Source: a bacterium
GTDB taxonomy: Bacteria; UBA8248
NCBI GenBank assembly: GCA_965221165.1
Contig: CBDCRP010000003.1
Location: 1,408,001-1,472,000 of the forward strand
Reading direction: 5' to 3'
Length of the DNA: 64,000 nt
Part shown: one piece after another, positions 7,495 to 43,332 of the stretch
Layout: each line of letters starts with the position of its first letter
Position numbering within the stretch: the stretch's first letter is position 1
Position numbers and translations under genes: made by a program
Notes under the pieces: generated by a model
Told to the model about the DNA's origin: nothing
Seen by the model: only the letters and a program-made list of their open reading frames with translations
Databases searched by the model: none

Positions 7495-11268
<3,774 letters not shown>

Positions 11269-14018: not shown

Positions 14019-15191
14019 ATGTATATCGCCACGAAGGACGCCATACTTCCCACCACCATCACGGGCTCCCTGCCCCGGCCCGCCTGGTTTCGCCAGAACA
14101 TCGGGCGAAGGTCGTTTCGCGAAGCGATGATCGACGCGGAATTCCGCGAGCAGTATCTCGACAACGTCTCCTGCGTCATCCGGGATCAGGAACGCGCGGG
14201 GCTCGACATCGTGACGGACGGGGACGCGCGCTTCGACACCAACGTGGGCGGACGCGACTGGGTGGGCTACATCGTCGACAGGCTCGAGGGTTTTTCGGGC
14301 TATGAAACCTCGAGGAGCCACGCCACCTGGGGAGGGTCCGTGCCCGGCGAGATCATGTACGAGGTCCTGGAAGCCAGAATGCTCCCCAAGGTCACGGCCA
14401 AGGTGGGTGAAGGCCCCCTCGAATACGCACAGATGTGGCGCAGCGCGCAGGCGATGACCGATAAACCCCTCAAGTTCGGCTCCATCAGCGCTGATTGCGT
14501 GGAATCCATCATCTCGAACGAGTTTTATGACGACAGGCGCGAGCTTTGCCTCGATTTGTGCCGCATCATGGGCGCGGAATTTCACCGCCTCGCCGATGCG
14601 GGGTGCCAGATTTTCCAGGTGGAAGAACCCTGGGTGCACCGCTTTGATTTTCATTCGGAAGACTCCGAAATGTCGATGGAGTTCTACGTGGAAGCGTTCA
14701 ACAAGAGCGTGGCGGGCCTGCGGGACAAGCTCGAGCTTTGGTGCCACACCTGCTGGGGCAACCCGGCCCAGCAGAGATTCTATGAATCATCCAAAAGCTA
14801 CGCGCCCGCCCTCGAGTACATGAACGAACTGGACGTGGACGTGCTCACCTTCGAGTGCGCGAGCACGGGGGGCATGGACCTCGATGAAATCGGAAAGCGC
14901 ATCACCAAACCCAAGGTGGCTATCGGCGTCATCAACCACCGGGGGCTTCAGGTGGAGCGCCCCGAAGAAGTGGCCGCCCTCATCAGAAAGGCGCTCACGA
15001 CGATTCCCGCCGAGCGGCTTTGCATCTCCACGGACTGTGGTTTCGGCCGCGAGGGCATGAGCCGCCGCCATGCGTTCTACAAGATGGTGGCCCTCTCTCG
15101 GGGGACGAATCTGGTGAAAAAAGAACTCGGCCTGCCGGAAACCTACATACCGGCCAGCGACGGCGCGTTCACGCTGAGTGACGAGGATTAG
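14019..15191 (+). CDS. single-barrel cobalamin-independent methionine synthase II family (MetE-like) Zn thiol-alkyltransferase
   Basis: TTITGSLPRP, QERAGLDIVTDG, HTCWGN and TDCGFG Zn ligands. Confidence 0.88.
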   Translation: MYIATKDAILPTTITGSLPRPAWFRQNIGRRSFREAMIDAEFREQYLDNVSCVIRDQERAGLDIVTDGDARFDTNVGGRDWVGYIVDRLEGFSGYETSRSHATWGGSVPGEIMYEVLEARMLPKVTAKVGEGPLEYAQMWRSAQAMTDKPLKFGSISADCVESIISNEFYDDRRELCLDLCRIMGAEFHRLADAGCQIFQVEEPWVHRFDFHSEDSEMSMEFYVEAFNKSVAGLRDKLELWCHTCWGNPAQQRFYESSKSYAPALEYMNELDVDVLTFECASTGGMDLDEIGKRITKPKVAIGVINHRGLQVERPEEVAALIRKALTTIPAERLCISTDCGFGREGMSRRHAFYKMVALSRGTNLVKKELGLPETYIPASDGAFTLSDED

Positions 15192-15287
15192 AAGCCGGGA
15201 CCCCTTGACGAACGAGCCTGAGCGAGAGTTCAGAACCATGTGCATCGGCCAAAAGCGGCTGCTTTAAGGGAAAATCCGCTTCGCGCG

Positions 15288-17123
15288 TCATCCCTCGTTT
15301 CGCGCTTCCGCCACGCCCAAGGCCGTGCGCAACTCATCCCCGCCGAGGGTTTCCTGCTCGAGCAGGCGCGCGGTGAGCGCCTCGAGGTCGTCGCGCCTCT
15401 CGGTCAATATCCCCATCGCGCGCGCATAGGCGCCGCCCAGGATTTTTTCCACCTCCTCGTCCACCTCGCGCTGGGTCGCCTCGCTGATGTCCAACCCCGC
15501 CGCCGCGCCGTTCATCCCGTCGCCCAGAAACAGCGAGCGCGGCGCGCGGCCCAGGGCGTGCGGGCCGAAGCGATCGCTCATGCCGTACTCGGTCACCATG
15601 GAGCGCGCCATGTCGGTGGCGCGCTGCAAGTCGTTCTGCGCCCCGGTGGAGACTTCCTCGAAAACCACTTCTTCCGCCGCGCGGCCCGCGAGGAGCACGG
15701 CGATTCTTTCTTCGAGTTCTTTTTTCGAGAGTAGATACCGATCTTCCGTCGGGCGCTGCAGGGTATAGCCCAGGGCGGCCAGACCCCTGGGGATGATCGA
15801 GACCTTCTGCACCGGGTCCGCCGTGCCCACGAGTTCGGCCACCATGGCGTGGCCCAGTTCGTGATAGGCCACGCGGCGGCGCTCTTCGCTCGTCATGACG
15901 CGGGATTTCTTCTCGAGACCCGCCGCCACCCGCTCGAAGGCTTCCTCGAAATCGGCCATCGTCACCGCGTCCCTGTCATGGCGCGCCGCCAAGAGCGCGG
16001 CCTCGTTCGCCAGGTTGGCGAGGTCCGCCCCCGAGAGGCCGGGCGTCATCGCCGCGAGCCTGTCGACGTCCACGTCCTGGCCCAGCACCAGCACCTTCGT
16101 ATGCACTTCCAGGATGCGCCTTCTGCCGCTCAAGTCCGGCTTGTCCACCAGCACCTGCCTGTCGAAGCGTCCGGGGCGCAGCAGGGCCGCGTCGAGAATC
16201 TCCGGCCGGTTGGTCGCCGCCATGATGATGACCCCCTTGCGGGTGTCGAAGCCGTCCATCTCGACCAAGAGCTGGTTGAGCGTCTGCTCGCGCTCGTCGT
16301 GGCCGCCCGCGAGGTTCCCCATGCCGCGCGCCTTGCCCAGCGCGTCCAGCTCATCCACGAAGACGATGCAGGGGGCCTTCTCCATCGCCTGTTCGAACAA
16401 ATCGCGCACGCGCGCGGCGCCCAGACCCACGAACATCTCGACGAACTCGGACCCGCTGATGCTGAAGAAAAAGACCCCCGCCTCTCCCGCCACGGCCTTC
16501 GCCATGAGCGTCTTCCCGCAGCCGGGTGGACCCACCAGCAGTACGCCGCGCGGAATCTTGCCGCCCAGGCGCATGTAGCGATCCGGATTTTTGAGATAAT
16601 CCACCACCTCGGCGAGTTCTTCCTTGGCCTCGTCCACGCCCGCCACGTCGGAGAAGCGAACGCCTACCTCTTTTTCCGCATAAATCTTCGCCTTGTTCTT
16701 GCCGAAGGCCATCACCCCCTGGCCCGGCCCCATGCGCCGCAGCACGAAAGCGTAGATGGCGAAGAGAATCCCCAGGGGCAGCACCCAGCTCGTGAACACC
16801 TGCACCAGCCAGGGCGGCTCGAACTGGCCCTGAAAGATGACGCCCGCACCCTCCAGGAGCTTGATGAGTTCGGGGTCGGCCACCTTCGCGGTCTCGAAGA
16901 ATCTCTGCTGCCCGTTCTCGTCGCGTCTTTTGAGAATTCCCTGGAGGCGGTCTCCGCGAATATCGACCCGCTCCACGTCGCCTTCTTTCAACATGGCGCG
17001 AAACTGGTTGTAGGGGATGCGCTGGTAGCGCGCGCCCTGGAAGAACAGGGTGTGGATCAAGGACATGATAACGAATATGAAGAGAAAATAACCGATGGAA
17101 AACTGTGTTTTCTTGTTCATCAT
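15288..17123 (-). CDS. ftsH: ATP-dependent zinc metalloprotease FtsH
   Basis: Two TM helices, [36 protein letters not shown]. Confidence 0.96.
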
Positions 17124-28057: not shown

Positions 28058-29344
28058 AGGGCAATTCGGGCAACTTTATAGTTTCGCGTTCCGATTCGGG
28101 GAATTGCCTGCGGTAGTCCTCCAGCAATTTACTCTTTTCTTCGTCGGTGATTTTTTCGCCGGCGAAGTAGGCGATAATGCTAGTCGGCAACTTGCGGTTT
28201 TTGGTGATAATTCTGCCGTCCGAAGCCCCGCCCGCCCAAAGAATGCCTTGCCACACCTTCTTGATATTTTCTCCGGTGATGCCCTAAGGCAGGGCGTTCA
28301 GCCTTTCGCACGCTTCTCGGTTGCTCATATTGGTGGGAGCACCCGTCAGGCGCAAAAAAGCGAGAACCAGACATTCTTGGGGCACTGGCTTGCCCAGCAG
28401 ATTCGTTTTACGTATTTCGCAGCGTTTTTCGTCACCCGATTCCTCGGGGTCGCTAAGCGCATCAGCGAATACATCGATCTGCTCCAGTAATATTTCCCAC
28501 ACTTCCCGTATTTTATGGCGATAGATTTTTTGCTTGTCGTCATCGGGCAGTTGGTTCGTGTCTAGTCTTCCATTAGGAAATGTCTCGATAATCGCCTTGT
28601 TGCAGTTGTAGATGGTGGAAAGAGTAGTGGATTCTGGGTTGCTCTGGCTCAAGGTGTTGCTTCTGTATCTGGCTAGTCGCCCGCCAATCAGTTCGTTGGC
28701 GATTTCACGCGACAGCACGGCGGCTATATCGTCATCGTCGGTAACGTAATTTTGCCCGGCCGTGGTCGGTTTGGCATATCGATTAACGCGCGTGAATATC
28801 TTGTGCGCCTTTTGCGGTTCGTAGGCAACTAGAATAACAGTGACATCTTCTTGGCCGAGTTTGATGCAGGGGCTGATGTTGGGAATGTCACGCTGTTTTT
28901 CATCACGTCCGGTAAAGGCAAACTCAATCGCTTTCAGTCGATGTTGACCATCCAACGGGACGAGTACTTCTCCACCAGTGAAAGTCAGAAAACCCATGCC
29001 GGAAGCCGCCGCGCGACACAAGTTGGGCAAGCCTCTCGTCGTCACGTCGGACAAAGGCTCTAATAAAACCTCGTCTTCATCTCCAAAATTTATCGCCGCG
29101 ACAATAATCGCGCCGAAAAAACGCGAATCATCGTTAGCTAAATATGGTGCGATTTGTTTTCTGAGGCGGTTGTAATTGATGTCTCGCTGGTAGCGTTCTT
29201 CAACGGATAGGTTTTCGTCCCATTCCTTGATTTTTCGCGGAAAGCGGAATTGATTGGCTAAATCCCATGCCTTCATTTTAAGAATAAAATAATTTTTCCT
29301 CCCATACGAGAGCGCATCGCTGGATAGAGGGAGGGGGTTCTCAT
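28056..29344 (-). pseudogene. DGQHR-domain (DndB-like, ParB superfamily) gene with frameshift and nonsense codon
   Basis: VPLDGQHRLKA; in-frame TAG at 28284-28286 followed by same-frame ORF 28056-28256; N-terminus MRTPSLYPAMRSRMG is out of frame near 29295. Confidence 0.8.
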
Positions 29345-29496
29345 GGCGTCAGGGGGGATATTTTTGAGGTTCAATCATGAGCCAATTGCTTTCAAACGAA
29401 TTGTTTTTCGCGGTTTCAATTAGTGGCGCTATTGTGCGGATAAGCGCCTCCTTTTGTCTGTTTGGGTCAGTCAATTGTTCAGATGTGAGTTGCAAG

Positions 29497-30047
29497 TCAA
29501 CACGGTAAGCCTCTGTGATCTCTAAAACAACGCTGAAAATATCGATTCCAAGTCATTAGCGCCGTATGTTGCAACGCGACAAAACGCTGAAAGTATTGTT
29601 CGTGGGGGAGGCGGTCACGCTTTTGTGCATTTGCATCCTCAGTTGAGGGAATGACATTCCAAGATCGATTGTGCCCGATGAAACTCCACGGCACATAATG
29701 GTCGAGATGGAAGTCCCGTGGGTGAAGTGGATCGCCGCTGTAAATGCAACGAATGCCGCCTAGCGTTTTCTCCATAATCTCTCGCCAAAACTCCCGCTCT
29801 CCTTTCCATTGTCCGCGAGATTCTGGAAAACCGATCTTGTTGGCGACCGCAGGAATGTTTGGGTTCCGTGCTTGTAGATAGTTCGTCCAGTGCATAAAGC
29901 CCAACACCAGACGATTTTCATATTACGCTTAAAATAATCGCGCCAAAGCGGATGCAGGATAATGGTTTTATCTGTCAATTTATATGGTGGTGGGTTTTGA
30001 GTATAAAAAGATTCTTCGGCGAATCGCATCAATGCCTCGCGAGCCAC
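29497..30047 (-). pseudogene. fragmented HNH endonuclease domain protein
   Basis: CIYSG...LDHYVPWS...HNRSWN...ANAQKRD split over two frames (29760-30047 and 29497-29907). Confidence 0.7.
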
Positions 30048-30888
30048 TTTTTCCGCGCGCGTTGGGTTATGAACCCAACGGCCCCCTTGAATCTCTTTAT
30101 TTCCAACCTAATTCTCTGCTCTGTCCGTGAATTGTCCGCCTTCAAATCCAGGGGAAGGCACTCGGGGAGAGAGGGTGCGCAGGGGGGAGCGCTAGCACCG
30201 GTATCAGAAAACGAGTGTCGCGCCCCCTGCCCCTGTGCCCATGGGGGCCAGTATACGGATTATGTGACATGGGCCCGAGAAAAATATTGGGGAGAATAAT
30301 TCAAATGCCGAGAAACATTGCCTTGTAAGGGCAATGCAAGGGGTATGAGCCTGATTGAGCTTGTAGTGACCTGGAGCGATACGTTTCAAGGAGTTGAGCA
30401 ATTCCCGAAGTGAACCTGAGTGACTCCGGTTGGTACTGATACGCACCGGTTGTAGTCACCTATAAGGACACCACCCAGATGGTTCCGGTGGGTTCCTCAG
30501 GCCTGTGCAAATGCCCTCCCGGAAGTGGATCGGGTTTTAGGTCGTTTTTTCCTACTCCACGAATCCTGTGCATGGCGATTTACTAATTTGCCATGCACGG
30601 GGCAATCAGAACATGAAAAATGGCTTTGGCTTTGACCATAAGATGGATCATGGCACGCCTAAACCTGATCTGGCGACCTCGGCAAAGTATTCTTTTTATG
30701 GAGGATCCAATTTTTGCGGAGCACAGGAGTGGTACAACAACTGAGGGCAGGTCAACTGCCCATACTTCTGTTCAAAAGCTGCGTGCAATCCTCACATGAA
30801 AAGATTAGAATTGAGCTTTAAGCTTAGGTTATCTATCAATCCGTAGTCTCGTATTCAGGCTCCCCGGGCGGGATGACCCCACGTGGGA

Positions 30889-32388
30889 CTAAACGAATGG
30901 CTCAGCTGTGCGCTCTACTCGCTGTTTCAGCCACCTAATTGAGAGAAGCCCTAGGACAAGAAAAGCCCAAAGCACTAAATCGAGAGGCCTTTGGAAGAAT
31001 ATGAGGGGGTTCCCGTCTGAGCGTTGCAACGATAATACAATTCCTTGCTCAATCATCCCACCAAGAATAAACGGAAATACGATGGCCAGCCGCTCATACC
31101 CAGATTTTGCCATGAAATAGCCAAGCACCCCAAGGACTATCATCGTCACAATGTCGACTGCTGAATTGCGCGCAGCATAACTCCCGATGATCATGAACAG
31201 GACTAGAAATGGGACTAGATATGATATGGGAAGGCTCACCAAGCGGCCGAAATAATTGCACAATGTCAAGCCCACAATGCAAACTACGACAGCGCCCAAA
31301 AGAATTGACCACATCACAGCCCACACGAGCTCGCCTTTAAGTGTGAAAACATCAGGCCCCGGTACAATGCCGTGAATCATAAGCGCTGCAAGAACTACAG
31401 CAGCCATCCCGCTACCGGGGATACCAACTGTAAGCGCGAGAATCAACGAGCTGCCTTCCACTGCGCTGTTTGCGGCCTCTGGTCCGATAACGCCATCGAC
31501 TGTCCCTCTGCCAAATTGATCGGGGTTCTTGGATAAGGCATTCCCCGCGACGTATCCCAGAAAGTTGGCTATGCCAGTGCCAGCTCCAGGAATTGCGCCA
31601 ACTATGATACCCGCGATAGTGCCGGCAAGCACATGGATTGGTTTGTGTAAAACATCGGATATACCTAAATATACTTCTCTTATTCCCCTTCGGGTTTCCA
31701 CATCCCTCCTAACTACGCTCTGCCTCTCACAAAGGATCAGAACCTCAGAAAAGCAGAGGAAGCCAATAAGGGCTACAATAATCGATGGGCCCTCATATAA
31801 CGCGACTACGCCCAGAATCATCCTGGGGTATCCAAAGAAAGGGTCTGTCCCGATAGTAGCCAATAAAAGTCCTAAAAGAGCGGCCAGGAGTCCTTTAGTC
31901 ATCGACTTTTTGAAGGCTGCGAGGAAGATAAGGGCAAAGCAAGCAATAAGCACCAACTCCGGAAAGCTGAATGTGAGAGCGAAAACAGCGAGGAGGGGAG
32001 CAAGTACCATTAAGGAAATGCCGCTCAGGAAAGCTCCTATGGAAGAGGCGAGAGCTGATATGGAAAGAGCTCTAATGCCTTCGCCATTGCGGGTCATTGC
32101 ATAGCCCTCAATGGCGGTTACGCTAGATCCTGGTGTTCCAGGCATTCCAAAAAGAATCGCTGGAATTGCTCCACCGTAAATTGAGGCACCAGCAATAGCC
32201 ATCAAAAATATGACGGCCTGTTCTGGCTTCATCCAGAAAGTGAAGGGAAGCATTAATGCCATGGCAGTGGTCGAGTTTATTCCTGGTAAAGCGCCAAAAA
32301 TAATTCCTATTGGTACACCGATAAACAGAAAAATCAAATTTTCGAATTTAAAAAGCAAATAAAGCCCGGGCCACATCGCGTCATACAT
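30889..32388 (-). CDS. tripartite tricarboxylate transporter large permease (TctA family)
   Basis: GALPGI, YGGAIPAILFGMPGTPGS, PEAANSA, GIPGS, HGIVPGP. Confidence 0.93.
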   Translation of the reverse strand: MYDAMWPGLYLLFKFENLIFLFIGVPIGIIFGALPGINSTTAMALMLPFTFWMKPEQAVIFLMAIAGASIYGGAIPAILFGMPGTPGSSVTAIEGYAMTRNGEGIRALSISALASSIGAFLSGISLMVLAPLLAVFALTFSFPELVLIACFALIFLAAFKKSMTKGLLAALLGLLLATIGTDPFFGYPRMILGVVALYEGPSIIVALIGFLCFSEVLILCERQSVVRRDVETRRGIREVYLGISDVLHKPIHVLAGTIAGIIVGAIPGAGTGIANFLGYVAGNALSKNPDQFGRGTVDGVIGPEAANSAVEGSSLILALTVGIPGSGMAAVVLAALMIHGIVPGPDVFTLKGELVWAVMWSILLGAVVVCIVGLTLCNYFGRLVSLPISYLVPFLVLFMIIGSYAARNSAVDIVTMIVLGVLGYFMAKSGYERLAIVFPFILGGMIEQGIVLSLQRSDGNPLIFFQRPLDLVLWAFLVLGLLSIRWLKQRVERTAEPFV

Positions 32389-32400
32389 GGTGACGCTCCC

Positions 32401-32817
32401 TTAAAGCGGAAGAAGAAGAAACTTTACGAATACAGTATAAAATGCCGCTGTCGTACAAATTGCCATGAGTATCGATTTCCAGGCCGTCACACGCCACACG
32501 AGAAGCATAAAAAATACTAATACGGGAGTCGCCAGTAGGAAGCCCATGCGCTCGACCGTGAGGGCATAGGCAACAGAAAGAATGATCACAGCACCAATCT
32601 TTGACAAGATTTGGCGATTTGGCATTTTCTCTTCTTCTGTTTCGGGGCTGGCATCGTGGAGTTCTTTCCAAAGCTCATAGACGGACAAGCCAAGAAGAAG
32701 AACTATGAGGATTCGCGGATACAAAGTCGAGGAAAATGGAAGAGAGTAGGTGTCAAAGAAATAACCGATTGAGAATACAACCGCAAAAGTTGGCAAGAAT
32801 AAGCGATGTAAGCGCAT
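32401..32817 (-). CDS. tripartite tricarboxylate transporter small subunit (TctB family)
   Basis: About four TM helices, YP and GF motifs; lies between the tctC-like and tctA-like genes. Confidence 0.85.
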   Translation of the reverse strand: MRLHRLFLPTFAVVFSIGYFFDTYSLPFSSTLYPRILIVLLLGLSVYELWKELHDASPETEEEKMPNRQILSKIGAVIILSVAYALTVERMGFLLATPVLVFFMLLVWRVTAWKSILMAICTTAAFYTVFVKFLLLPL

Positions 32818-32903
32818 AAGTGCTCTTCTTCCTGAGGGTACTCAGGATTGAACGTTTCCCCCTCATCCCTGTCTTTGATCCAGCTTCACCCTACAAATTT
32901 GTT

Positions 32904-33956
32904 CTACCTTCGCGCGAAAATGTCTTTGTGCTCCGTCAAAATCTTGTCGAACTTCTTCATCTCTCTGTCAGCCTCATCGAGTCCCTTATATCGAATAACT
33001 GTTGTCGCCCTAAGTTTAGCAACGGCATCCTTAAATGCCTTCGTGGTCATCGTTTGTCGCCATGTTTCATCTAGCACTTTCCAACGGTCTGGATACTGCT
33101 CTTTGACTGCACTCGGAAACACGAAACCCTTGTAAACAGTCGGGTAGATTTCATCCTCTGTGACATGCTGCTCTGGAGGCAGGACCTCGTTCCACGTAGG
33201 AACATTTGGCCACAAGGGAGTTCTCTTCAAGGCACACGTCCCCAAGCCGCGTGCAAATGTTGGAACTCTGCGAGCCCAGGAGACCCAACTACCATGAGTC
33301 GCGAGCAGCTGATGGCCGCCTCGGATTTCACGAGTCAAACTGGCTCCCTTTCCGCTTTCGAACGGGAGTATCTTGCCGAACTTAAGGCCCGTCTTCTTTT
33401 CGAGAAGGCGGGGAAAGTAGTAATGCCAGCCTCTTGAGGTGGTTCCGACACTAATCTCTCCCGGGCGGCGCTTCATATCTCCAACCAGGTCTCCCAGGTC
33501 TTTCCACGGCGCTTGCTTGGCGCAGTAGAAAATCTGCTGGTCATCGTGAACCAGCGCCAGCCATGACCAGCTCTCCGCCTTGTAGGGGGGTTTCTGGAAG
33601 AGATATGTGATATTCAAATTCGGCAGCTGGCCGAAGACCATGTTATAGCCATCAGGTTCCTTACCGTAGACATATTCGTAGCCGACCTGGTTGTTGCCCC
33701 CAGGCTTGTTAATGACGACAATCGGAACTCCTAGAACTTTCTCCCAGGCAGGCGTAATGCCCCGTGTAAAAATATCCGTCCCGCCACCCGGTCTCCAGGG
33801 CACTGTCACGTGTATTGGCTTGCTTGGGAAGCTAGCAGCGTACCCCTTCCTTGGCTTGGCAAGGACGCCAGGTGCTGCAGTTAATGCTCCCAGAGTAAAG
33901 GCAGATTTCTTCAGAAAACTTCTCCGTGTCACCATCTTTTTGTTACGTGGCATCAC
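32904..33956 (-). CDS. tripartite tricarboxylate transporter substrate-binding protein (TctC/Bug family), Tat signal
   Basis: TRRSFLK; FPSKPI.VTVPWRPGGGTD, NKPGG, PDGY. Confidence 0.92.
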   Translation of the reverse strand: MMPRNKKMVTRRSFLKKSAFTLGALTAAPGVLAKPRKGYAASFPSKPIHVTVPWRPGGGTDIFTRGITPAWEKVLGVPIVVINKPGGNNQVGYEYVYGKEPDGYNMVFGQLPNLNITYLFQKPPYKAESWSWLALVHDDQQIFYCAKQAPWKDLGDLVGDMKRRPGEISVGTTSRGWHYYFPRLLEKKTGLKFGKILPFESGKGASLTREIRGGHQLLATHGSWVSWARRVPTFARGLGTCALKRTPLWPNVPTWNEVLPPEQHVTEDEIYPTVYKGFVFPSAVKEQYPDRWKVLDETWRQTMTTKAFKDAVAKLRATTVIRYKGLDEADREMKKFDKILTEHKDIFARR

Positions 33957-34163
33957 TCTCCCTCCTCAGTTAAGAGCCTCGCTTTATAACTCATTGAAGC
34001 GTTGTGTGTAGCGTGCATGAGATGTTCTCCGCGGAACTCCGGACGTAGTGTGCTCCCCCCTCCCGGACGCCGAGCGCGATGAGCTTTTGGAGAAATCCCC
34101 GGCGATTCATCAGAAATCCTTTTTTTTCATCGTCGTTTCTCCTCAAGAGTTCACCCGGACATT

Positions 34164-35498
34164 TCAATTCACGCTGCTCGCATCTAGCAGCGCGCCCGCG
34201 TCGAAGACCGTTTGCTTGTCTATCGAAATGGTGAGCGTCTGAAGAGCCGCGCGCACCAGATCCTTCCGAAGGGTGCGCTCTCTCTCCTCGGTCAGTTCCG
34301 GATCCCCGAACGGGTAATGGAATCGGACGCCCCGCACAATGCGGTTGCAGCCCATAGATAAGGCAACGGTGAAGAAGCAGGTTACCAAGACGGTGGGAAT
34401 CCCCGCCGCCTCGAGTTGTTTCGCCAGCGTAGCTCCGCTACGCGTCCCCGACCCTCACGTAGCCGGCACCAAGACCCCGTGAATCCCAGCCTCTTTCAGT
34501 TCAGCGGCGATGACCTTACCGATCTGGCTCATCACGCCGACATTGCCCCAGTTCCCGCAGGTCACGTAGTAGGTATCGTGAAGCCTTCCGAAGAACCCCT
34601 CCCTTTCCAACGACCGAAGCGCATCCAGCGGCACGCCTCTGTTGGGGTCCTCGTTGATCCGCGTGTTGTCGTATCCTCCGTGAATGGATTCGTGGGTCTC
34701 GGCGGAAAGCGCCTTAAGACCATCGAGGCTGTACTTTTCCCATTTCTGCGTTCGGACACCTTCGACTCGACCGGGATTTCCCTTGGGGACGACCCCACAC
34801 TCGGTCACCACGGCGATGGTGGATTCGGTCAGGTTGGCCAGGGGTGAGGGAGGCGGAACGACCTCGACCGCGCTGAGGCGAAGTTCGGTCCGCGGGCTCT
34901 CCATCCGGATTTTCTCGAGGAGAAGATCCAGCGCCCTCCCTTCCGCCGAGCGGCGATGGCGGGCGTTCCTTCGGATGCCGCGAGGGAAGTAGCCTTCCTC
35001 CTCCGGGCTTCCGACGGATTCCCTCCTCCCCAAGCGCACTGCGAGGTGGGCCATCCGCTGCAGAGAGGCCGGCATTTCCACGACGGAATCCCCTGAGGGG
35101 ACCACATAAGCATGCGCGCGATATAACTCCAGGGCGGGATTCTCCTCCGACATTCCGACGACCGCCGGGACTCCGCAGTCGCTCATGGCACAGGCCGCCA
35201 CCGCCCCGCAGGCCAGTCCGTATCTTCCGGACGCGAACGCTGGCCCCGCGATGAGCACATGGGGCGATGCCCCCCGGATGGCCCGCCGAATTTCTTCGAG
35301 GGTCTGGCCTTCGGCCTTCTCGAAGGTACCGTCGCCGCAAATAATGGTCGTCACAAAAGCGTCGTCGCCCAACTCCCGCTGGAGTAGCTTCCCGGGCCCC
35401 ACGGGGCCTTCTATGATCTCCAATGGGCAATCCGCCTTTTCTTCACCCCCCTTGCCGCCAAAATATTGATTGAGATAATGGACCACTCGAATGGACAT
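34164..35498 (-). CDS. glycine/sarcosine/betaine reductase selenoprotein B family subunit (Sec at UGA 34455-34457)
   Basis: VHYLNQYFGGKGGEEKAD, GPAFASGRYG, HGGYD; read-through VLVPAT-U-GSGTRSGATLAKQLEAAGIP joins in-frame ORF 34164-34388. Confidence 0.92.
34427..34443 (-). promoter_or_regulatory. putative bacterial SECIS hairpin of the grdB-like gene
   Basis: GCGTAGC-GGA-GCTACGC, 7-bp perfect stem 11 nt after the UGA. Confidence 0.72.
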
Positions 35499-35508
35499 GA
35501 ATTCTCTC

Positions 35509-36792
35509 CTAGAAGGAGACGCAGGAAATCCCCGATATCCCCATCTGCCACTGGCTTGCGTAAAGCTCGTGTCCCGTCACTTCCCCGCCCGCCAATGGAT
35601 CGATGGGTGGGCGCTCGTAGAATTCGAGCGGTTGGGGCCCGAGGACCTTTTCCACTGGCGGCAGGACCAACGGCTCGTCCAGATTCCCCGTGCTCACGAT
35701 GACATCCGCTTCCGGGACGAAATCCGCGACCGGAAAGTCGCGCCCGTCTTGCCCTGCGTGCTCATGGATTTTCAGCACCGTCTTGATGCCTGCCGACTCG
35801 CAGGCCCGCACCGTCAGCATTGCATCGATGATGGTGTTGCCGGTCCCCTCGATACTGATGATCGCGCCATCGGCTTGAAGCAGCCGCGCCAGGTTCGCCG
35901 CAAAATAGGCGCTCCGCTCCTTCAGCAAGTGGTTGTCGTTGTGACCCCGCGTCAGAATCACCCCCGCGAACAGCAGATCTCTGTCGTGCCGGTCTAGCAA
36001 TTCCATGATTGCCGGGTTGCGGCAATGCATGAACGTGGGAATTTTCATCGCACTCTTGTAATTGCCGCTCACCACCGCGCCATCCAGCATTTCCGTCGGG
36101 TATAGAGCGGTAGGGGTATGGATTCGCGTGCTCTGCCCGTAAAGGAAGGTTTGGACGAGTTCCCCTTGGTCCTGGACTTGGCCGATATAGACGACGCGTG
36201 GCTTCTGGCCGTCCGATGACGCTGCTATGTCGAACACTTCCACGTCGTCCACCTCCTGCTCGAAGCCGAGGCGCCCGAGATGATGGGCGAACTGCAGAGT
36301 CACTGTTCGAATGGCCACATCAAACTCGTGGTTCGTCGCGTCCGGACAAGGCCAAAACGTGAGGACGAGGTTGAAACTGCCCGAGCAGGCGCAGAGGGGG
36401 GCGGCCGGGCCAGCCATGTCGATCACTGCCGGGCGGACGGTCAGGACGCCGGTGGACTTTTGGGGGAAGATTCCGCACTGCACCACGCGCAGATTGCTTA
36501 ACCGGTGTGTGACGCCGCCGCCGACCGTTTGGGATGGGCCGATGAAACCGGGGAAGGCGTCCAGGGGCGCGGGCCCCGCCTTGGCGATGGGCTCGACGGC
36601 GTCGAGCGGATTGACGATGCGCACGGATTCGTTCGGCCGCGCAATCTCAACGGCCACCCGCTGGATGGCCGGATGCGGACGTGCGAACTTTTCCAAGTAC
36701 GAGGGATCGATGCATAAGTTGCCATCTTTCATCTGATTTTTCGATCCGAGCTCTATTTCGCGGACGGTATGATTATGAACTTCCAGGCGCAT
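35509..36792 (-). CDS. glycine/sarcosine/betaine reductase component B proprotein family (GrdE/GrdG/GrdI-like)
   Basis: MRLE start, IARPNESVRI..DAVEP, IDMAGP, PTEMLDGAVVSGN, KERSA, ADGAIISIEG.GN, VSTGN. Confidence 0.9.
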   Translation of the reverse strand: MRLEVHNHTVREIELGSKNQMKDGNLCIDPSYLEKFARPHPAIQRVAVEIARPNESVRIVNPLDAVEPIAKAGPAPLDAFPGFIGPSQTVGGGVTHRLSNLRVVQCGIFPQKSTGVLTVRPAVIDMAGPAAPLCACSGSFNLVLTFWPCPDATNHEFDVAIRTVTLQFAHHLGRLGFEQEVDDVEVFDIAASSDGQKPRVVYIGQVQDQGELVQTFLYGQSTRIHTPTALYPTEMLDGAVVSGNYKSAMKIPTFMHCRNPAIMELLDRHDRDLLFAGVILTRGHNDNHLLKERSAYFAANLARLLQADGAIISIEGTGNTIIDAMLTVRACESAGIKTVLKIHEHAGQDGRDFPVADFVPEADVIVSTGNLDEPLVLPPVEKVLGPQPLEFYERPPIDPLAGGEVTGHELYASQWQMGISGISCVSF

Positions 36793-36818
36793 GGCATCTC
36801 CCAGTCAAAGCGTAGACC

Positions 36819-38237
36819 TCATTCCGGCCGTGACAAGACGAACGAGATCCCGTCCATCAGCTGGGTCATCCGTCCGAGGAAGAGGCTTCCCTTGGCGACG
36901 AACATCACGTGGTCCAAGCTTCCCTGCCGAAGTCGGGACAGAGCGTGGCCGACATAGGGGACGGCGGCCGGTATGTGGCCCTGCGTCGGGGAAAATCCCA
37001 CCATCCCCCGGGAAGTCACGAACTCCGGGATCTCGGTGGCGAGTATTTCTTTCCGCAGAACGGCGAACGCCCCCAACGAGCGGTAGTTGTTGCGCGGGAC
37101 ATCTCCGCTACCCGCTGGCTCGGTGATTTCCGGATTGTGGAGCTCCACGGCGAAACGGGAGATGTCCAGCATTTTCATCCCAAGAGCCCGGAGCGGCTCG
37201 CCCACCAGCGTCTCGAGCAGCGCCTGCTCGGAGATCCCCGCCTTGACCCGATGCTGCCCAATCGCCTCCATGCGGATGAAGGGAGCTTCCCCCGTACGTC
37301 CGGTCATCAGGAAGGCCATGCTGGCGAGGACATCCTCCAGGATGGGCATGTCGTTCTTGAGATGTCCCAGAAACTTCATCCCGAGCTTGGGGAGGGAGCC
37401 GCCGCCCACCACCGCCACCTGGCGTGCAATTCCGGCCGAGATGAGGGCCGCACCGTGGACGATGGCGTAACCCGGCGAGGCACAGAAGGATTTGATGTCT
37501 ACCCCGCTCGCATTGGAGCAGCCCGCCATCTCCGCAATCGCCTTGGCTAGATTCCCCCCTCCCCTGTTGTACCGATCGCCCACCGCATCCTCAGAGCATG
37601 AGAGGACCACATCGACCGTTTCGGGATCCATCCGTTGTTGAGTCAGCAGGTGACGCAGCGCGAAAGCACCGGTGGCCTTCGCGGCAAAATTCTCCAGAAG
37701 CACCGTCGGTTCGAGATTTGGATCTTGCTCGTGGGCTTGGCGCACGCATCCCACCGTCTTCCCCTCGTGGAAGAGCGGCAAAGCGCCTTCTCGGTCTATC
37801 TCGTCATTGATGTCCCCCAAGAGTTTCCCCTCCAGGGGTCCGAGGCCCTCCTGACTCCACCCTCGGCGCCTCCAGGGGTCTTCCTGACCGGATAGCCACT
37901 CGTATTCAAGCCAGACCAAGTCAAACTGGTCCGCTTCCTTCATGAGGAGAAAGAAATCCGGCTGGGTAAGGATCTCCCCGAACTTCCCGATTACCGGCGC
38001 GGACCCATTTGTGCGGCAAAACCAAGGCCTCGGCTCCCGATTCAGATCTTCCGGCCCCTGGTTTCCGATGAACACCTGATGAGGGAGGTAATCGACCGCC
38101 GATTGGAACGTCCGCAGGCGATTGGCGAATTCGGAGCGAAGGGCAGGTCGGACTGACAGTTCCCACAGAGGCTTGGAGCCGTACCGCACGAGGTCGGAAA
38201 CGTGGAAGAGATGATATCCTGCCGCCATCAATTCCAT
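36819..38237 (-). CDS. glycine reductase component C beta subunit-like (GrdC, FabH fold)
   Basis: YLPHQVFIGN, CSEDAVGDRYNRGGGNLAKAIAE, FCA, HNPEIT, GSLFLGRMTQLMDGISF. Confidence 0.92.
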   Translation of the reverse strand: MELMAAGYHLFHVSDLVRYGSKPLWELSVRPALRSEFANRLRTFQSAVDYLPHQVFIGNQGPEDLNREPRPWFCRTNGSAPVIGKFGEILTQPDFFLLMKEADQFDLVWLEYEWLSGQEDPWRRRGWSQEGLGPLEGKLLGDINDEIDREGALPLFHEGKTVGCVRQAHEQDPNLEPTVLLENFAAKATGAFALRHLLTQQRMDPETVDVVLSCSEDAVGDRYNRGGGNLAKAIAEMAGCSNASGVDIKSFCASPGYAIVHGAALISAGIARQVAVVGGGSLPKLGMKFLGHLKNDMPILEDVLASMAFLMTGRTGEAPFIRMEAIGQHRVKAGISEQALLETLVGEPLRALGMKMLDISRFAVELHNPEITEPAGSGDVPRNNYRSLGAFAVLRKEILATEIPEFVTSRGMVGFSPTQGHIPAAVPYVGHALSRLRQGSLDHVMFVAKGSLFLGRMTQLMDGISFVLSRPE

Positions 38238-38278
38238 CGGGAACCTCCCATTATATTTTGCCGAGCCGATGTGCCCCG

Positions 38279-38746
38279 CTAGCCGGCGCTCAAGCTGCGC
38301 ACCTTCTCGATGGCTCCGAACAGAGAGTCCAAGTCAGTCGACAGCTTGGGGAACTCCAATTTCTCCTGGTAAAGCGCTTCCGGGATGATCGCTTCGAAGG
38401 CGGGCTCGAATATGTGGTAGAAGGGGAGGTCGAGCTCCACCCCTCCCAGCGGTCCCGCGTAGCTGGGGTCACCCTTGGTGAGGGTAACCCCCATTGTTTC
38501 GATGGTGCTCGGATCCTTGGCGCCCAGGACTGCGATTAGGTTCTCTTTGCCGTGCGCCTCGACGAGGCGCTTGATGGAGGCTTGGTTTTCAAAGTCCATG
38601 CCTCCCGCCGCGGTTCAGACGAAGCACTGGGTCAGTTCGAGGACCACTTCTAGTCCCCCGCCACGCAGGCATTCGCCGATCAGGCGCCCCTGGACGCCGT
38701 CTCGCTCGCCGAAAGCGATGAATTTTCCCCCTTCAAATTCTCTCAT
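38279..38746 (-). CDS. grdA: glycine reductase selenoprotein A (Sec at codon 44, UGA 38615-38617)
   Basis: Manual translation MREFEGGKFIAFGERDGVQG...TQCFV-U-TAAGGMDFENQ...GDPSYAGPL; canonical CxxU; ATGA overlap with the iclR stop. Confidence 0.95.
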
Positions 38747-39528
38747 GCCAATCTCCCATACGACAGATTTGACGAAAGCAAATCTATTCGAAATCCCAAA
38801 TCCTTGCTGATATCAGATACCGCTATTCGGAGTTCCCGTGTGAGATTCGATTTCGCTTTACGGGAAAATCTCAAATCAGGCACGTAGAGGCTGATGCAAT
38901 AGTCCACACAGCCGTTCGCCGTATAGATTGGCGCCGCGATGCCCACGCCGCCCACGGTCCGCTCTTGAACCCCAATGGATACCCCCTTGGCCTTGATGCG
39001 CGGAAGTTCGCGCCGCAGTTCTTCTTCGCGCACGACTGTCGAAGGGCCGACGGGCTTGAGCAGGACCTGTCGGAAATATTGGTCGGTCTCCTCCTGGCTC
39101 AAGTGCGCCAGCAGAATTTTCCCCGCCCCTCCGCAATAGAGGGGAACAAGTTTGCCGAGCTCGGCGGCCATCCGCAATTCGTGTGAGCTTTCGAACTGCA
39201 TGACACACGCACGCGCATTGCCCATCTTTCTCCATAGGCACACCGTTTCTTGCGTTCGATCACGGAGATGGCGCATATGATAGGAGCTGCTGGCCACCAC
39301 GTCCTGATGGACCAGGCTTCTCAGCATTCCGATGAGCCTTAGGCCCAAGACCCAACCCCGTCCGGTGCTCGTTCGCTGAATGAGACCCGACTCCTCCAAG
39401 GTTCGCGTGAGTCGGAGTGCGGTGCTCTTGGGGAATCCCGAAAGCTTGACCACTTCCGGGAATGTCAGGACCGGCCGCTGGGAGGTAAAAAGGTCCAAGA
39501 TGGACAACAACTTTTCGAGTAGTTTCAT
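38743..39528 (-). CDS. IclR-family transcriptional regulator
   Basis: N-terminal wHTH (PKSTALRLTRTL), PLYCGGAGKILLA, GIAAPI. Confidence 0.93.
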   Translation of the reverse strand: MKLLEKLLSILDLFTSQRPVLTFPEVVKLSGFPKSTALRLTRTLEESGLIQRTSTGRGWVLGLRLIGMLRSLVHQDVVASSSYHMRHLRDRTQETVCLWRKMGNARACVMQFESSHELRMAAELGKLVPLYCGGAGKILLAHLSQEETDQYFRQVLLKPVGPSTVVREEELRRELPRIKAKGVSIGVQERTVGGVGIAAPIYTANGCVDYCISLYVPDLRFSRKAKSNLTRELRIAVSDISKDLGFRIDLLSSNLSYGRLA

Positions 39529-39894
39529 TTTCCGGACCTCTTATGCTAATTTATGGAACTTTCTCATTAACTCGGATAGGTGTCAAGAGGGCATTTTCCC
39601 CGTTTGAAGCTCGGGAAATGGGATGCGGACGGCGAACCTAGGCAGTTGAACTTGACATCGCTAGATGAAAAACGAACAAGAATTTGATTATGGCTCAGTC
39701 GTCGAATCTGACCTTGTCTTGCAGTGAGGCGGAACCATGAGCGTCTGCAGTCCCAGAATTCCTCCATGCCATTGTTCTTGCTTCCTTGCTTCAAATGTTG
39801 TGGCATGACGATAGGGGTTTCGCCGACTGGGATTTATTGGGCACGCCATATGGTTGACTCCGACAAGACATCTGTTTCCATTGAAGAGGGCGAG

Positions 39895-41007
39895 ATGCTT
39901 CCAAAGAAATTACTTTCTCGGCATCCCATCCTGCGGGAGTTTCTGCTGGATCAGGCTCCCTTCGTGATTTCTCTGTTTGTCCTCGGGATTGCCGCTAACT
40001 ACTTGCAGCATGGTTTCATGCCGGGAGGAGATCGACCGTATCCCCTCGCCGAAGTGGCGGTCCCATTGTGGCATCTTCTCTGGCTGGGCTTCTGGACCGG
40101 CTACATCATGGCGCTGGTGGGTGAGGCCAGCGGTCTTCTCGCGCTCCCTTACTCGATGTCTGTGCTGAATTTTCAGACGCTCGCCGTAACCCCCACCCAC
40201 CTTCTCATTACATTCCTCAATCCCTATGGCGCGCTCATAGGCTTCTGGCGAGAGAGGCGCTGGAACCTGGACATTGCTCTGTGGCTTTGCCTCGGCACGC
40301 TGGTGGGGTCGCAGGCTGGCCCCTTCATTCGGGTGTACTTCCTGTCTCAGCCGGCTCCCATCAAGGCATTGATCGGCGCAGGGCTTTTCTATTTGGGGGG
40401 TCATCTGATGTACGAGGTCACACCGCGGTATCTGGCCCGGAGGCGCGACCTCACAACATTCAAGGCGAAGTTCGACGCCCATGTGAAGAAAATGCTCCGA
40501 GAAGGTAAGAATCCCTCTGGCATCCCGGAGAAGGCGATGATTCATACGCTGGAGCGTTCGTGGCGGAGAATCACCATTTCCTTTTGGGATGAGAGCTATA
40601 CTTTGTGCCCGCCCCTGCTGCTGCTTCTGGGGACAGGGGTCGGCCTAGTATCCTCTACGATAGGCGTGGGCGGAGGGTTCTTAATGACCCCGCTCTTGGT
40701 GAAGATTTACCGGCTCCCGATGTTTGTGGTCGTGGCCGCCTCCATCCCGTTCGTCGTGGTGCAGTCGCTCGTCGGGTTCTTCGCCTACAACGTCACTCTC
40801 CCCCTGCTCACTGGCGGTTATGTAAATTCGGAGTGGGGATGGGGCTTCCTGGTCGCTTCCTCCGCTGTAATGGGGGCATGGTGTGCATCCAAAACGCAGA
40901 AATTCGTGCCCGAACACTACCTCAAGCTGATGCTGGGGATCCTGAGCGGCCTGGGTGGCTTGGTGTATCTATTGAACTACTTGATTGGACTTCCCTTCGA
41001 GATATGA
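39895..41007 (+). CDS. TauE/SafE (TSUP) family sulfite-exporter-like membrane protein
   Basis: Repeated Gly-rich TM motifs (VGEASGLLALP, IGVGGGFLMTP); divergent from iclR; start uncertain. Confidence 0.8.
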   Translation: MLPKKLLSRHPILREFLLDQAPFVISLFVLGIAANYLQHGFMPGGDRPYPLAEVAVPLWHLLWLGFWTGYIMALVGEASGLLALPYSMSVLNFQTLAVTPTHLLITFLNPYGALIGFWRERRWNLDIALWLCLGTLVGSQAGPFIRVYFLSQPAPIKALIGAGLFYLGGHLMYEVTPRYLARRRDLTTFKAKFDAHVKKMLREGKNPSGIPEKAMIHTLERSWRRITISFWDESYTLCPPLLLLLGTGVGLVSSTIGVGGGFLMTPLLVKIYRLPMFVVVAASIPFVVVQSLVGFFAYNVTLPLLTGGYVNSEWGWGFLVASSAVMGAWCASKTQKFVPEHYLKLMLGILSGLGGLVYLLNYLIGLPFEI

Positions 41008-41471
41008 AAACACCGCCGTTCTTCCGAAAAATGAGAACTCTTCTCCTTCCCTTATTGCCGTTTGCGGTTCTCTTTCTGGCGATATTGATAGCTGCCTATC
41101 ATATTGCAGTGTATCGCTGAATTCTTCCTGACGTTCCCCCCTTCTATGAAAGCCCGTTGCGCGTTAAGGTATTTTCTCAACCAGGCAGCCGCGAGTCCTA
41201 TTCTTCTATCCGAGCGTTGGCTTGTGAGTCTTGCCCATCTGGGTGCTTTGAGAGGGCGACGGCTGACCTATCTTAGACCGAGCTTTGAAGCCCAAGGGGG
41301 CTCGATTTCGCCGTCGCAAGCGCGGGAAGGCGACCGTGTCTCCCTCTCACTCATGCGGCCTGCCGCTGCATCTGATGATAGAGTCACCTTATCCACCGAT
41401 TGCAGACAGCCGCCACAATCACGCTGGTGGGTTTTCCGGCCTCATGTATCTTGAGGGCAAGCCGGCTCTCT

Positions 41472-41800
41472 TGACTTGCCCCCGATAGTGGTACCACTCC
41501 CTATAAGAGTCCTAGAACCATGGCCGAAGGGCGAAGCGGAGCGATGCCCGGAGGCCATGGTTCTTTTGTTTCAGGTGCCGGAGGCCGGTAATCCAATGAA
41601 CTATGCGGCCTAATTCTGTTGTACACATGCCTCCAGCGTTCCACCAGCACTTTCGCTTCGTGTAGCGTATCGAATCTCTCCAGATTCAAGAGTTCATCCC
41701 GCATCTTTCCGATAAAAGATTCGACATATCCATTCTCCCAAGGGCTTCCAGGCTCGATGAAGAGCGTCTTCACGCCCAGGCGGGAGAGCCACTCTCTGGC
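41472..41800 (-). mobile_element. IS3-family remnant (3' end of transposase plus right end)
   Basis: [16 protein letters not shown]...[12 protein letters not shown]; terminus TGACTTGCCCCCGATAGTGGTACCA fits the IS3 TG...CA rule. Confidence 0.85.
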
Positions 41801-42195
41801 GCGTGCAGTCGCTGCGCGAGGAGGGCCGCTCGAGCCGCGCCTAGCTGTGGACCTCGGTCAGCGAGGACGTGGTCTACTTCCACGTCGACTCCTCACGCGG
41901 CGCAGAGGTCGCGAAGAAGTTGTTCGCCACGACCGGCCGACATACGGTCATCGTCTGCGACCGCTACGGCGCCTACAAGAAGCTGGCGCGCATTCCCGGG
42001 GGTCTGGTAACCCTCGCATGGTGTTGGGTCCACGTACGCAGGGATTTCATCCACTGCGCCGCCGGTCAGGTGCGGCTGACGCGGTGGCGCCGGAGATGGA
42101 TCGAGCGGATTGCGCTGCTCTATCGCCTGAACGAGGCGCGCCTGGCCCGTTACGACCCAGGGATCGAACGGCAGGGCGCGGCGTTCGACGCGGCG
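41797..42195 (+). mobile_element. IS66-family transposase (TnpC) internal fragment
   Basis: VCDRYGAY...[12 protein letters not shown]; in-frame TAG upstream; both ends missing. Confidence 0.8.
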
Positions 42196-42434
42196 CGTGG
42201 GCCTCGCCCCAGAGCCGCGTGGTCCTCTCCCGCGCTTCTTTGGAAGCGCAAGAGCGCGCCTACGAGGCCGCGTTCGCTGGCCGAGACGTGCCGCGTCCCC
42301 CCCACTGGGGCGGTTACGTCCTGAAACCTCATACTGTCGAGTTCTGGCAGCACAGGGACAGCCGTCTCCACGACCGTGTGCGCTACACGCTGGAGACGGA
42401 TGGAGAATGGAGCGTCGAGAGACTGGGGCCGTAG
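42192..42434 (+). pseudogene. second, divergent copy of the pdxH 3' end
   Basis: [10 protein letters not shown]...[30 protein letters not shown]...LGP*; first 26 nt match 26483-26508 at 25/26. Confidence 0.9.
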
Positions 42435-42469
42435 TACCTAACGGATTATTACCAAAGGAAAACCACGCC

Positions 42470-42710
42470 ATGCCCATGAAGAATCCGCCCCATCCGGGCC
42501 TTTCCGTCGCCCAAGATTGCCTGGAGCCGCTACGTTTAAGCGTAACGGAAGCCGCCCGGAAGCTCGGCGTGAGCCGCAAAGGATTATCCCGCCTCGTCAA
42601 CTGCCGTTCGGGCATCTCTCCCGAGATGGCGATTCGCCTGGATAAAGCCTTCGGCGGGGGTGCGGAAGTGTGGTATCGCCTCCAGACGGCCTACGACTTC
42701 GAACAAGCGA
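42470..42710 (+). pseudogene. truncated second higA copy, preceded by a few bases of higB tail
   Basis: [10 protein letters not shown]...YDFEQA near-identical to 19618-19902; TAACGGATTAT upstream matches the higB end; broken at about 42710. Confidence 0.88.
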
Positions 42711-43332
42711 CCAGATACCACAAAGCGAGCACAACGAGCACCGGATACGAAGAGCTCGCAGTTGGCTCAGCCAGAGCAGAAAAGTCACCTCGGAAGAGGA
42801 GAAATTCATTTGTCTGTGGATCGCCTTCAACGCGGCCTACGGCGGTGAACCGACCGGCCAAAACGGGGCTCCCGACTCCGAGAGATTCACGAACTTTTTG
42901 GAAGATATAATCAACTGCGACACACGGAAAGAAATAGAGAACATTCTCTGGGAAACATATTCCGGGCCAATCCGGGTTCTTTTGCAAAACCAGTATGTAT
43001 TCGCTCCATTCTGGGAATGGGTGCGGGAACCGTCGACGGACAACGACTGGCGCAGACGATTCGAGCGTATCAACGCCAGAATAAACAGGGCCCTAGGAAA
43101 AAGAGATGTACACGGCGTCTTTACGGAAGTTTTCTGGCGGCTGTATCAATTGCGCAACCAGGTTTTCCACGGCGGCGTGACGTTCGCCGAGGGATGGGGG
43201 CGGACGCAACTCAGGGACGGCAGCCGCATCATGGCGGAGGTCGTTCCGGTGATTCTCGACGTCATGGATGAAAACCCCAAGTCCGATTGGGGAAAGGTCG
43301 CCTACCCCAGGGTCGGCGAGAATCCGGATTAG
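42710..43332 (+). CDS. Apea-like HEPN-domain protein, copy 1 (native start and leader deleted; possibly pseudogene)
   Basis: [13 protein letters not shown] and [11 protein letters not shown] (RxxxxH); fused out of frame to the higA fragment; an in-frame GTG exists at 42670. Confidence 0.75.

Follow-up and report, generated by a model that had tools for sequence, protein, structure and literature searches.

A mobile, IclR-linked cassette joining a divergent glycine-reductase-type selenoenzyme to a TTT importer in a UBA8248 bacterium: a candidate route for reductive cleavage of a carboxylate

What does an operon of the glycine reductase type act on when its selenoenzyme lacks the cysteines of the textbook enzyme and its protein C lacks the subunit GrdD? 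The question is raised by a grd locus in a 64,000-nucleotide stretch of DNA (the window; contig CBDCRP010000003.1 of assembly GCA_965221165.1, positions 1,408,001 to 1,472,000 of the forward strand) from a bacterium of the lineage UBA8248. There, genes for GrdA and a GrdB-like protein, both predicted selenoproteins, stand beside genes for a tripartite tricarboxylate transporter (TTT). A sequence-only reading of the window had given the gene order as iclR-grdA(Sec44)-grdC-grdE-like-grdB-like(Sec348)-tctC-tctB-tctA (Sec, selenocysteine) on the minus strand with a divergent TauE gene, and searches with Pfam and NCBIfam models recovered all nine genes in these places:

30889-32388, minus strand: tctA, large membrane subunit of the TTT system, 499 aa (PF01970, 407.7 bits)
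32401-32817, minus strand: tctB, small membrane subunit of the TTT system, 138 aa (PF07331, 64.7 bits)
32904-33956, minus strand: tctC-like periplasmic binding protein, 350 aa (PF03401, 43 bits, cut-off 27; twin-arginine translocation (TAT) signal, TIGR01409)
34164-35498, minus strand: grdB-like selenoprotein B, 444 aa, Sec348 in PATUGSGTRSGAT (PF07355, 382 bits)
35509-36792, minus strand: grdE-like subunit, 427 aa, Tyr245 codon at 36058-36060 (PF09338, 325 bits)
36819-38237, minus strand: grdC, thiolase-fold subunit of protein C, 472 aa, Cys252 in SFCASPG (NF040746, 558 bits, cut-off 450; PF19364)
38279-38746, minus strand: grdA, selenoprotein A, 155 aa, Cys41-Phe-Val-Sec44 (NF040748, 145.8 bits, cut-off 130)
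38743-39528, minus strand: IclR-family regulator, 261 aa, first gene of the operon (PF01614, 129 bits; PF09339, 49 bits)
39895-41007, plus strand: TauE/SafE-family permease, divergent from iclR; the open reading frame (ORF) opens at 39724 (PF01925, 101.6 bits)

The end of iclR overlaps the start of grdA by 4 nt. We lean modestly towards reading these genes as a mobile, IclR-controlled catabolic cassette that would combine carboxylate import by the TTT system with two-selenoprotein reductive cleavage at the alpha-carbon. We infer the chemical steps, and the link to the importer, from the known chemistry of the family.

The selenoprotein character of the operon depends on two in-frame UGA codons:

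34455-34457, minus strand: UGA, Sec348 of the grdB-like protein, hairpin at about 34422-34444
38615-38617, minus strand: UGA, Sec44 of grdA (CFVU), hairpin at about 38576-38605 (fold z-score -2.27)

Hairpins lie directly 3ʹ of both codons, and that of the grdB-like gene is preserved, relative to a paralogous second grd cluster of the same genome (paralogue 2), through a compensatory U-A to C-G change. The genome encodes tRNA-Sec and SelB (384 bits, cut-off 242). The NF040748 score above its cut-off together with the CxxU motif places the 155-aa protein in GrdA, and the PF07355 and PF09338 matches, along with 409 bits for the TIGR01918 subfamily (cut-off 65), place the module in the selenoprotein B superfamily. 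For comparison of motifs, the window was aligned with 81 loci, namely the second cluster of the genome and 80 loci fetched from species-representative genomes, and Sec348 aligned with the Sec of all 81.

Within this superfamily, the B protein remained under every equivalog cut-off, with 377 bits for GrdB (TIGR01917, cut-off 602), 412 for GrdF (NF040794, cut-off 800) and 367 for GrdH (NF040795, cut-off 775), as did the E protein with GrdG (236 bits, cut-off 780) and FarE (NF053623, 107 bits, cut-off 675). The control locus L087, from a Clostridium genome, reached 757 bits with TIGR01917 and 605 bits with the GrdD model, and also encodes TrxB and TrxA. Compared with this glycine reductase, the window has the same A, B, E and C families, the same Sec positions and hairpins after the UGA codons, but it differs in lacking the cleavage Cys, the UxxCxxC cysteines, GrdD and adjacent trxAB genes, as well as in its gene order (A-C-E-B) and in having its own importer and regulator.

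The losses concern two sites. According to a review (PMC13188914), a UxxCxxC motif surrounds the Sec of GrdB. The 82 aligned rows fell into UGTCTRCG (57 rows), an intermediate class UGTGTRCG (6), UG[TS]GTRSG (15, including the window and its paralogue) and other motifs (4); in the window motif, UGSGTRSG, both Cys of the canonical form are gone. The second site is the proprotein cleavage site of GrdE and GrdG, the Cys of which becomes a pyruvoyl group (Bednarski 2001, as cited in PMC3091704). At this position, the alignment has SGNYKSAM (Tyr245) in the window versus SGNCVSAC in the GrdE of L087. The cleavage Cys was present in all 54 aligned GrdE proteins of canonical-motif loci and in 0 of 14 from the UG[TS]GTRSG class (Tyr in 12, Asn in 2), while the intermediate class had Tyr in 4 of 4. 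Among the nearest GrdE-type cluster representatives (143 of the best 150, after 7 shorter than 330 aa were dropped), 70 had Tyr, 17 Phe and 8 Cys, indicating that the Tyr-type branch, taken broadly, has many members and that the textbook Cys form is a minority in the vicinity of the window GrdE. The GrdI proteins beside two verified GrdH genes are likewise without the cleavage Cys (SGSFMPA in L094). As no pyruvoyl group can form, Sec348 would displace the alpha-substituent directly. The idea of direct displacement without a Schiff base is thus supported by a feature that the sequence-only reading had not noticed, Tyr245 in place of the cleavage Cys; the sulfonate and TauE guess of that reading fared worse, as described below.

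To place the B protein, a tree of 47 rows was rooted on two PrdB sequences. In this set, 41 of the 57 canonical rows were dropped, and the 16 rows kept with the motif comprise 13 of those 57, the two GrdH references (L094, 855 bits; L095, 849 bits) and L103. No GrdF above the cut-off was found in the 5 genomes searched, and the tree has no sarcosine reference. GrdB and GrdH shared a canonical clade (support 97). Four FarB orthologues, picked beside FarE matches of 882-937 bits, formed a separate long-branched clade (support 100) apart from the window protein, which stood on a long branch (0.9) in an 11-row cysteine-free group (support 93). Its best identity in the tree set was 48%, to a metagenome-assembled genome (MAG) of Thermodesulfobacteriota. 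In the approximately unbiased (AU) test, union with the canonical GrdB and GrdH clade was rejected (p 0.016, at a cost of 46 log-likelihood units), the group having been named after the tree was seen. The earlier claim that the B subunits fall outside the characterised clades is thus borne out by the NCBIfam scores, the tree and the AU test; by this sequence evidence, the B module belongs to none of the enzymes for glycine, sarcosine, betaine or fluoroacetate.

Even within the GrdD-less, Cys-poor branch that the three losses define, the window copy stands out, not only in branch length and in its distance from the nearest tree relative, but also in rarity: among 5.8 billion proteins, window-type GrdB amounted to 3 clusters at 61-67% identity. 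For the E protein, an exhaustive search of 1.84 billion representatives of 50%-identity clusters returned one at 72% (listed with 426 aa), with the rest at 46% or less. A metagenome scan with an alignment of the window B protein and its three 61-67% relatives gave nothing above 47% identity among the matches listed. PDB sequence searches with the B and E proteins returned no match, and by such searches the glycine-reductase family has no solved structure.

A course of reaction can be proposed in which the residue roles follow the published glycine reductase scheme, as given in PMC10838667 and PMC13188914. The TTT system would import an anionic carboxylate, captured by a binding protein that is an orphan of its family. 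The GrdE-like subunit would remain uncleaved and without a pyruvoyl group, hence no Schiff base would form, and Sec348 of the GrdB-like subunit would displace the leaving group directly, a mode of attack already proposed for the reductases of betaine and fluoroacetate. Sec44 of GrdA would next receive the carboxymethyl (or acyl-methyl) group, and Cys41 of GrdA would resolve the selenoether, with the acyl group arriving on Cys252 of GrdC. Without GrdD, GrdC would release acetyl-CoA or the free acid, not acetyl phosphate for ATP synthesis. Re-reduction of GrdA would fall to a thioredoxin system from outside the cassette; elsewhere in the genome, searches found a TrxB homologue (41% identity) and a weak Trx match.

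The cassette would function most like the betaine and fluoroacetate reductases, while being a member of neither. In the account of the fluoroacetate reductase FarE/FarB of Cloacibacillus porcorum MFA1 by Leong et al. (PMC10838667), FarB is without CxxC and FarE without the pyruvoyl-forming Cys, so that a GrdE/GrdB-type pair with the same losses acts on a substrate whose leaving group is not an amine, and the operon has a transporter gene of its own. A non-amine leaving group, as inferred in the sequence-only reading, had already been published for this enzyme family. The far operon has a radical-SAM gene and a major facilitator superfamily (MFS) antiporter and relies on the GrdA and protein C of its host (PMC10838667), in contrast to the window cassette, which has its own grdA and grdC and is without GrdD; FarB also has its own clade, and the window E protein scores poorly with the FarE model. 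FarE was found in 0 of 5 Synergistota genomes at first and in 13 of 251 genomes of that phylum in a wider search. In three of five FarE loci from Synergistota (L206, L207 and L209 of L206-L210), an extra ORF lies upstream of FarE and resembles only the C-terminal half (residues 181-422) of GrdB-family proteins.

Betaine reductase shares with the window, on the proposal made here, an uncleaved GrdE-type subunit, an attack of Sec on the alpha-carbon without a Schiff base and the participation of GrdA and GrdC. We regard it as unlikely, though worth keeping in view, that the cassette is itself a betaine-type reductase acting on glycine betaine or another onium-acetate (quaternary ammonium or sulfonium), with the amine or sulfide leaving as in GrdH/GrdI. 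An onium leaving group suits direct displacement, and the missing cleavage Cys in GrdI is a further likeness, but the score with the GrdH model is less than half its cut-off, and both verified GrdH references retain UGTCTRCG and sit in the canonical clade, with which union was rejected. Betaine reductase also has GrdD, in contrast to the window, and the locus has a TTT importer and no BCCT or Opu-type transporter. TTT systems carry anionic carboxylates.

Returning to the proposed cassette, its handling of the acyl group would depart from the classical scheme at protein C. GrdD acts in acetyl-phosphate formation. The sequence-only reading had noted that grdD, trxA/trxB and BCCT genes are missing from the cluster, which is correct, and the absence of grdD extends to the whole genome: the best match to the GrdD model (NF040747, cut-off 350) in this 96%-complete genome was 20.8 bits, and tblastn with a verified GrdD gave none. 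Of the two subunits of protein C, GrdC passes its cut-off and GrdD was not found. Among 41 genomes from the genus up to the class, 25 of which carry a grdB-like gene, none had GrdD above the cut-off. In the motif sample, GrdD adjoined 46 of the 48 canonical loci with grdC and 0 of 25 non-canonical loci (0/15 of class UG[TS]GTRSG, 0/6 of UGTGTRCG and 0/4 of the others), 16 of which have grdC nearby. The AckA and Pta models likewise gave no match in this genome, the same models being positive in 9 and 10 of 14 control genomes, respectively.

GrdC itself differs with this partner. Between 15 GrdD-less and 11 GrdD-linked loci, 8 positions were near-fixed for different residues, such as His367 for Gln, with the majority residue in 13-15 of the 15 and in 10-11 of the 11, respectively; Cys252 was invariant in all 26 aligned GrdC proteins. 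Since GrdD, AckA and Pta were not found and GrdC differs in this way, the data suggest some exit for the acyl group from GrdC that bypasses acetyl phosphate. A much more specific version, in which an anionic substituted acetate is taken up by the orphan TTT system, loses a non-amine leaving group to Sec348 and has its acetyl group passed to coenzyme A by GrdC alone, is rather improbable as a whole and is offered tentatively. If it were true, glycine-reductase chemistry would be uncoupled from acetyl phosphate and ATP formation, and would have a role in carbon assimilation or detoxification in bacteria without acetate kinase.

The cassette lies within a shared block that extends slightly beyond the nine genes:

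29791-41461: shared island of 11.67 kb, a single blastn block at 99.41% identity to locus L122 (genome G027) and 99.35% to locus L123 (genome G010)

G010 and G027 are two other species of the genus, and the flanks of the island there are unrelated to those in the window. Other flank segments of the two genomes match this genome at 87-91% identity, with the backbone at about 88-91%. On these identities, the island at 29791-41461 was exchanged recently. Each of the three copies has all nine genes intact, with 24 synonymous and 22 non-synonymous substitutions versus G027, and 31 and 25 versus G010. Window-type grdB at 99% identity was found in 2 of 22 other species of the genus, these same two. 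In both, the island is bordered at its tauE end by a segment of 7.2 kb, the counterpart of which in this genome lies on a different contig and is 99.7% identical (894-8125 of L122 in G027, corresponding to G000:C2:1133220-1140451 here), with the backbones about 90% identical; the segment carries genes for an ABC transporter, a protein with three CMD (AhpD-like) repeats, a DsbA-like protein and an IS1595 transposase.

The second cluster of the genome, grdC-grdA-grdE-grdB, lies 180 kb away (G000:C3:1621822-1626553; 10553-15608 of locus L013) and has the motif UGTGTRSG. Of the 22 other species, 16 have genes of the paralogue 2 type (46-49% identity to the window protein), and by this distribution the second cluster is the native type. 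The island therefore brings its own grdA and grdC into a host that already holds a set. Across the neighbourhoods of 6 paralogue 2 loci, nothing was conserved beyond grdC-A-E-B, hence they give no substrate hint. Downstream of the second cluster are an IS110 transposase, a DAO-family FAD oxidoreductase and a TAXI-type (NMT1_3) binding protein.

Whether the importer belongs with the reductase was approached by counting homologues of the window proteins (tblastn, E at most 1e-5) near grdB-family genes in 80 genome and 80 metagenome loci; many loci are short, and the counts are lower bounds. TctA was linked in 1 of 80 genome loci (L048) and 4 of 80 metagenome loci (L136, L137, L144 and L160), TctC-like proteins in 1 and 7, respectively, and IclR in 1 and 0, while TauE was found in 0 of the 80 genome and 0 of the 80 metagenome loci. 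Of the co-occurrence of TTT and TauE that had been put forward, the TTT half therefore held, recurring beside non-canonical grdE/grdB modules in several sub-branches, and the TauE half did not.

In L048, from a Thermodesulfobacteriota MAG (5994-12745), Pfam gave the order grdE-grdB-grdC-grdA-iclR-CoA transferase-acyl-CoA synthetase-tctB-tctA-tctC. This locus holds the nearest genome relative of the window B protein, and its Sec motif, UGSGTRSG, is identical to that of the window. The CoA-transferase and acyl-CoA synthetase neighbours hint at a substrate or product handled as a CoA ester. In L137 (592-11808; Pfam), tctC-tctB-tctA lie tightly between two genes of the grdE type and one of the grdB type, and additional tctC copies, a metallo-beta-lactamase-fold gene and an amidohydrolase come after them; an amidohydrolase also stands at the end of L136, and L144 is flanked by a pyridoxal-phosphate-dependent enzyme with an ACT domain and by an ABC-transporter ATPase fragment. 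In L136, L137 and L144, the Sec motif is UGTGTRCG and grdA and grdC are not nearby.

In the window, the TctA, TctB and TctC genes stand together, each above its cut-off, as expected of a complete TTT system. The binding protein is an orphan within its family, with its best non-self relative only 34% identical among 5.8 billion proteins and its best PDB relative (25hk_A) at 70 bits. A composition break falls in the 207-nt gap between the grdB-like gene and tctC, which also holds a small remnant:

33991-34110, minus strand: remnant ORF of 39 codons with a TAT-signal-like start (MNRRGFLQKL...), read from the sequence

This ORF is probably a junction scar of an earlier binding-protein gene. It might be the stump of one displaced by the low-GC tctCBA block. 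The composition of tctCBA and the orphan TctC make the importer look like a later graft, and by the break in GC content at third codon positions (GC3) and the TAT-like remnant, the island is itself a mosaic.

The operon is apparently expressed. DNA runs of at least 10 studies contain at least 0.82 of the sampled words of a 6.5-kb core, which was also partly present in 4 metatranscriptome runs from 2 studies. Contigs from RNA libraries, 95-100% alike, cover 32849-39372, from tctC to iclR, and some (records 2, 10 and 11) span the 3ʹ end of the grdB-like gene, the gap and the start of tctC. No such contigs were placed on tctA, tctB or tauE, a gap that proves nothing. Scans for promoters and terminators gave results at or under chance level, and an Rfam search of 29000-42000 gave zero matches.

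Several points weigh against an importer and reductase acting together in a working cassette. GC3 is 0.48-0.58 in tctCBA (0.49 in tctA) versus 0.73-0.76 in the grd genes, and the importer may be a recent, possibly unrelated neighbour; for the three closest GrdB relatives (61-67%), a comparable TctC or TauE could not be demonstrated. The contigs of these GrdB relatives are 16223, 14044 and 1246 bases long, and no TctC or TauE relative lay on a contig of any of these lengths, a weak negative sign. An RNA library may contain DNA, and contigs from it cannot prove a single transcript. The dN/dS of the island is about 0.3, from only about 50 differences. That GrdD, AckA and Pta were not found is a negative result from a genome that is 96% complete with 8.5% contamination, and the fixed differences in GrdC may reflect phylogeny only.

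An alternative reading has a working grd module to which the TTT and TauE genes were joined by recombination as passengers, uninformative on the substrate. The GC3 break, the TAT-signal remnant and the orphan TctC all fit such a history, as does the conservation of only the four grd genes around the 6 paralogue 2 clusters. On the other side, the whole unit stayed intact through transfer into three genomes, RNA-library contigs continue from the grdB-like gene across the gap into tctC, and several unrelated loci have TTT genes in close order with grdE/grdB. We consider passengers a possibility to be reckoned with, if an unlikely one, and prefer the cassette with its importer.

The permease is a different case. 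According to the sequence-only reading, sulfoacetate was one of several conjectural substrates and TauE would remove the released product; in its fullest form, sulfoacetate or a related sulfonate would be cleaved to an acetyl unit and sulfite, the latter exported by the TauE-family permease. The tauE gene, divergent from iclR, is part of the island in each of the three genomes, dsrA was not found, so released sulfite would need another route, and a TTT system for sulfolactate is known. Against this, no TauE-like gene was near the grdB family in the 160 loci surveyed, and the only linkage of TauE to a grd cluster is this island, copied into three genomes, so that its part as a functional partner finds no backing. 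More than 150 relatives at 44-66% identity make the permease subfamily a common one, in contrast to the rare window-type GrdB, and a TauE/SafE domain match does not by its family name alone establish sulfite export. A sulfonate pathway is therefore very unlikely. The permease ORF of 427 aa is probably over-extended, as relatives have 370-383 aa and a 99%-identical database form has 370 aa; the start is probably near 39895 rather than 39724. Its neighbours in the protein atlas are TauE clusters of 317-359 aa. An inverted repeat was looked for in the spacer between iclR and tauE, and none was found.

An ordinary glycine (or sarcosine) reductase, divergent merely through an unstudied lineage, is the least credible reading, for although all four core genes are present and GrdA and GrdC exceed their curated equivalog cut-offs, the module lacks the pyruvoyl-forming Cys and the two motif Cys, searches of the genome gave no GrdD, AckA or Pta, and the B subunits lie far under the GrdB, GrdF and GrdG cut-offs and outside the canonical clade.

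The mobile cassette thus remains our preferred reading. Within the GrdD-less branch, the window copy is set apart by its exchanged island, TTT importer, IclR regulator, TauE gene and coexisting native-type paralogue. In the literature covered, from which subscription journals are excluded, no paper was found that treats the GrdD-less branch or a grd operon linked to TTT genes, and a 2026 review still portrays the family, in the account seen, through the clostridial enzyme (PMC13188914). What is new here is an outlying second copy on an exchanged island, with an orphan importer and a regulator, covered by RNA-library contigs, in a host without detectable AckA and Pta. As a complete mobile unit of regulator, importer and reductase, the window is an unusually testable member of its branch: the soluble binding protein and the ligand-sensing regulator could be used for substrate screening, in a host in which GrdD and acetate kinase were not found. 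The identity of the ligand would name the substrate class of a widespread environmental selenoenzyme and show how the pathway ends without acetyl phosphate.

Around the edges of the island, three further features were noted:

28284-29276, minus strand: DndB-like (DNA-sulfur-modification-associated) gene adjoining the HNH gene (PF14072, 84 bits)
29497-29907, minus strand: HNH-endonuclease gene, cut by the left edge of the island at 29791 (PF13395, 39 bits)
41501-41773, minus strand: integrase-core (rve_3) transposase fragment, 40 nt outside the right edge of the island (PF13683, 91 bits over 90 aa)

The DndB-like and HNH genes (28284-29907) lie in a low-GC stretch. On the other side, an ORF with an HTH_3 domain (42197-42910, plus strand) follows the rve_3 fragment, and these are signs of variable surroundings rich in mobile elements.

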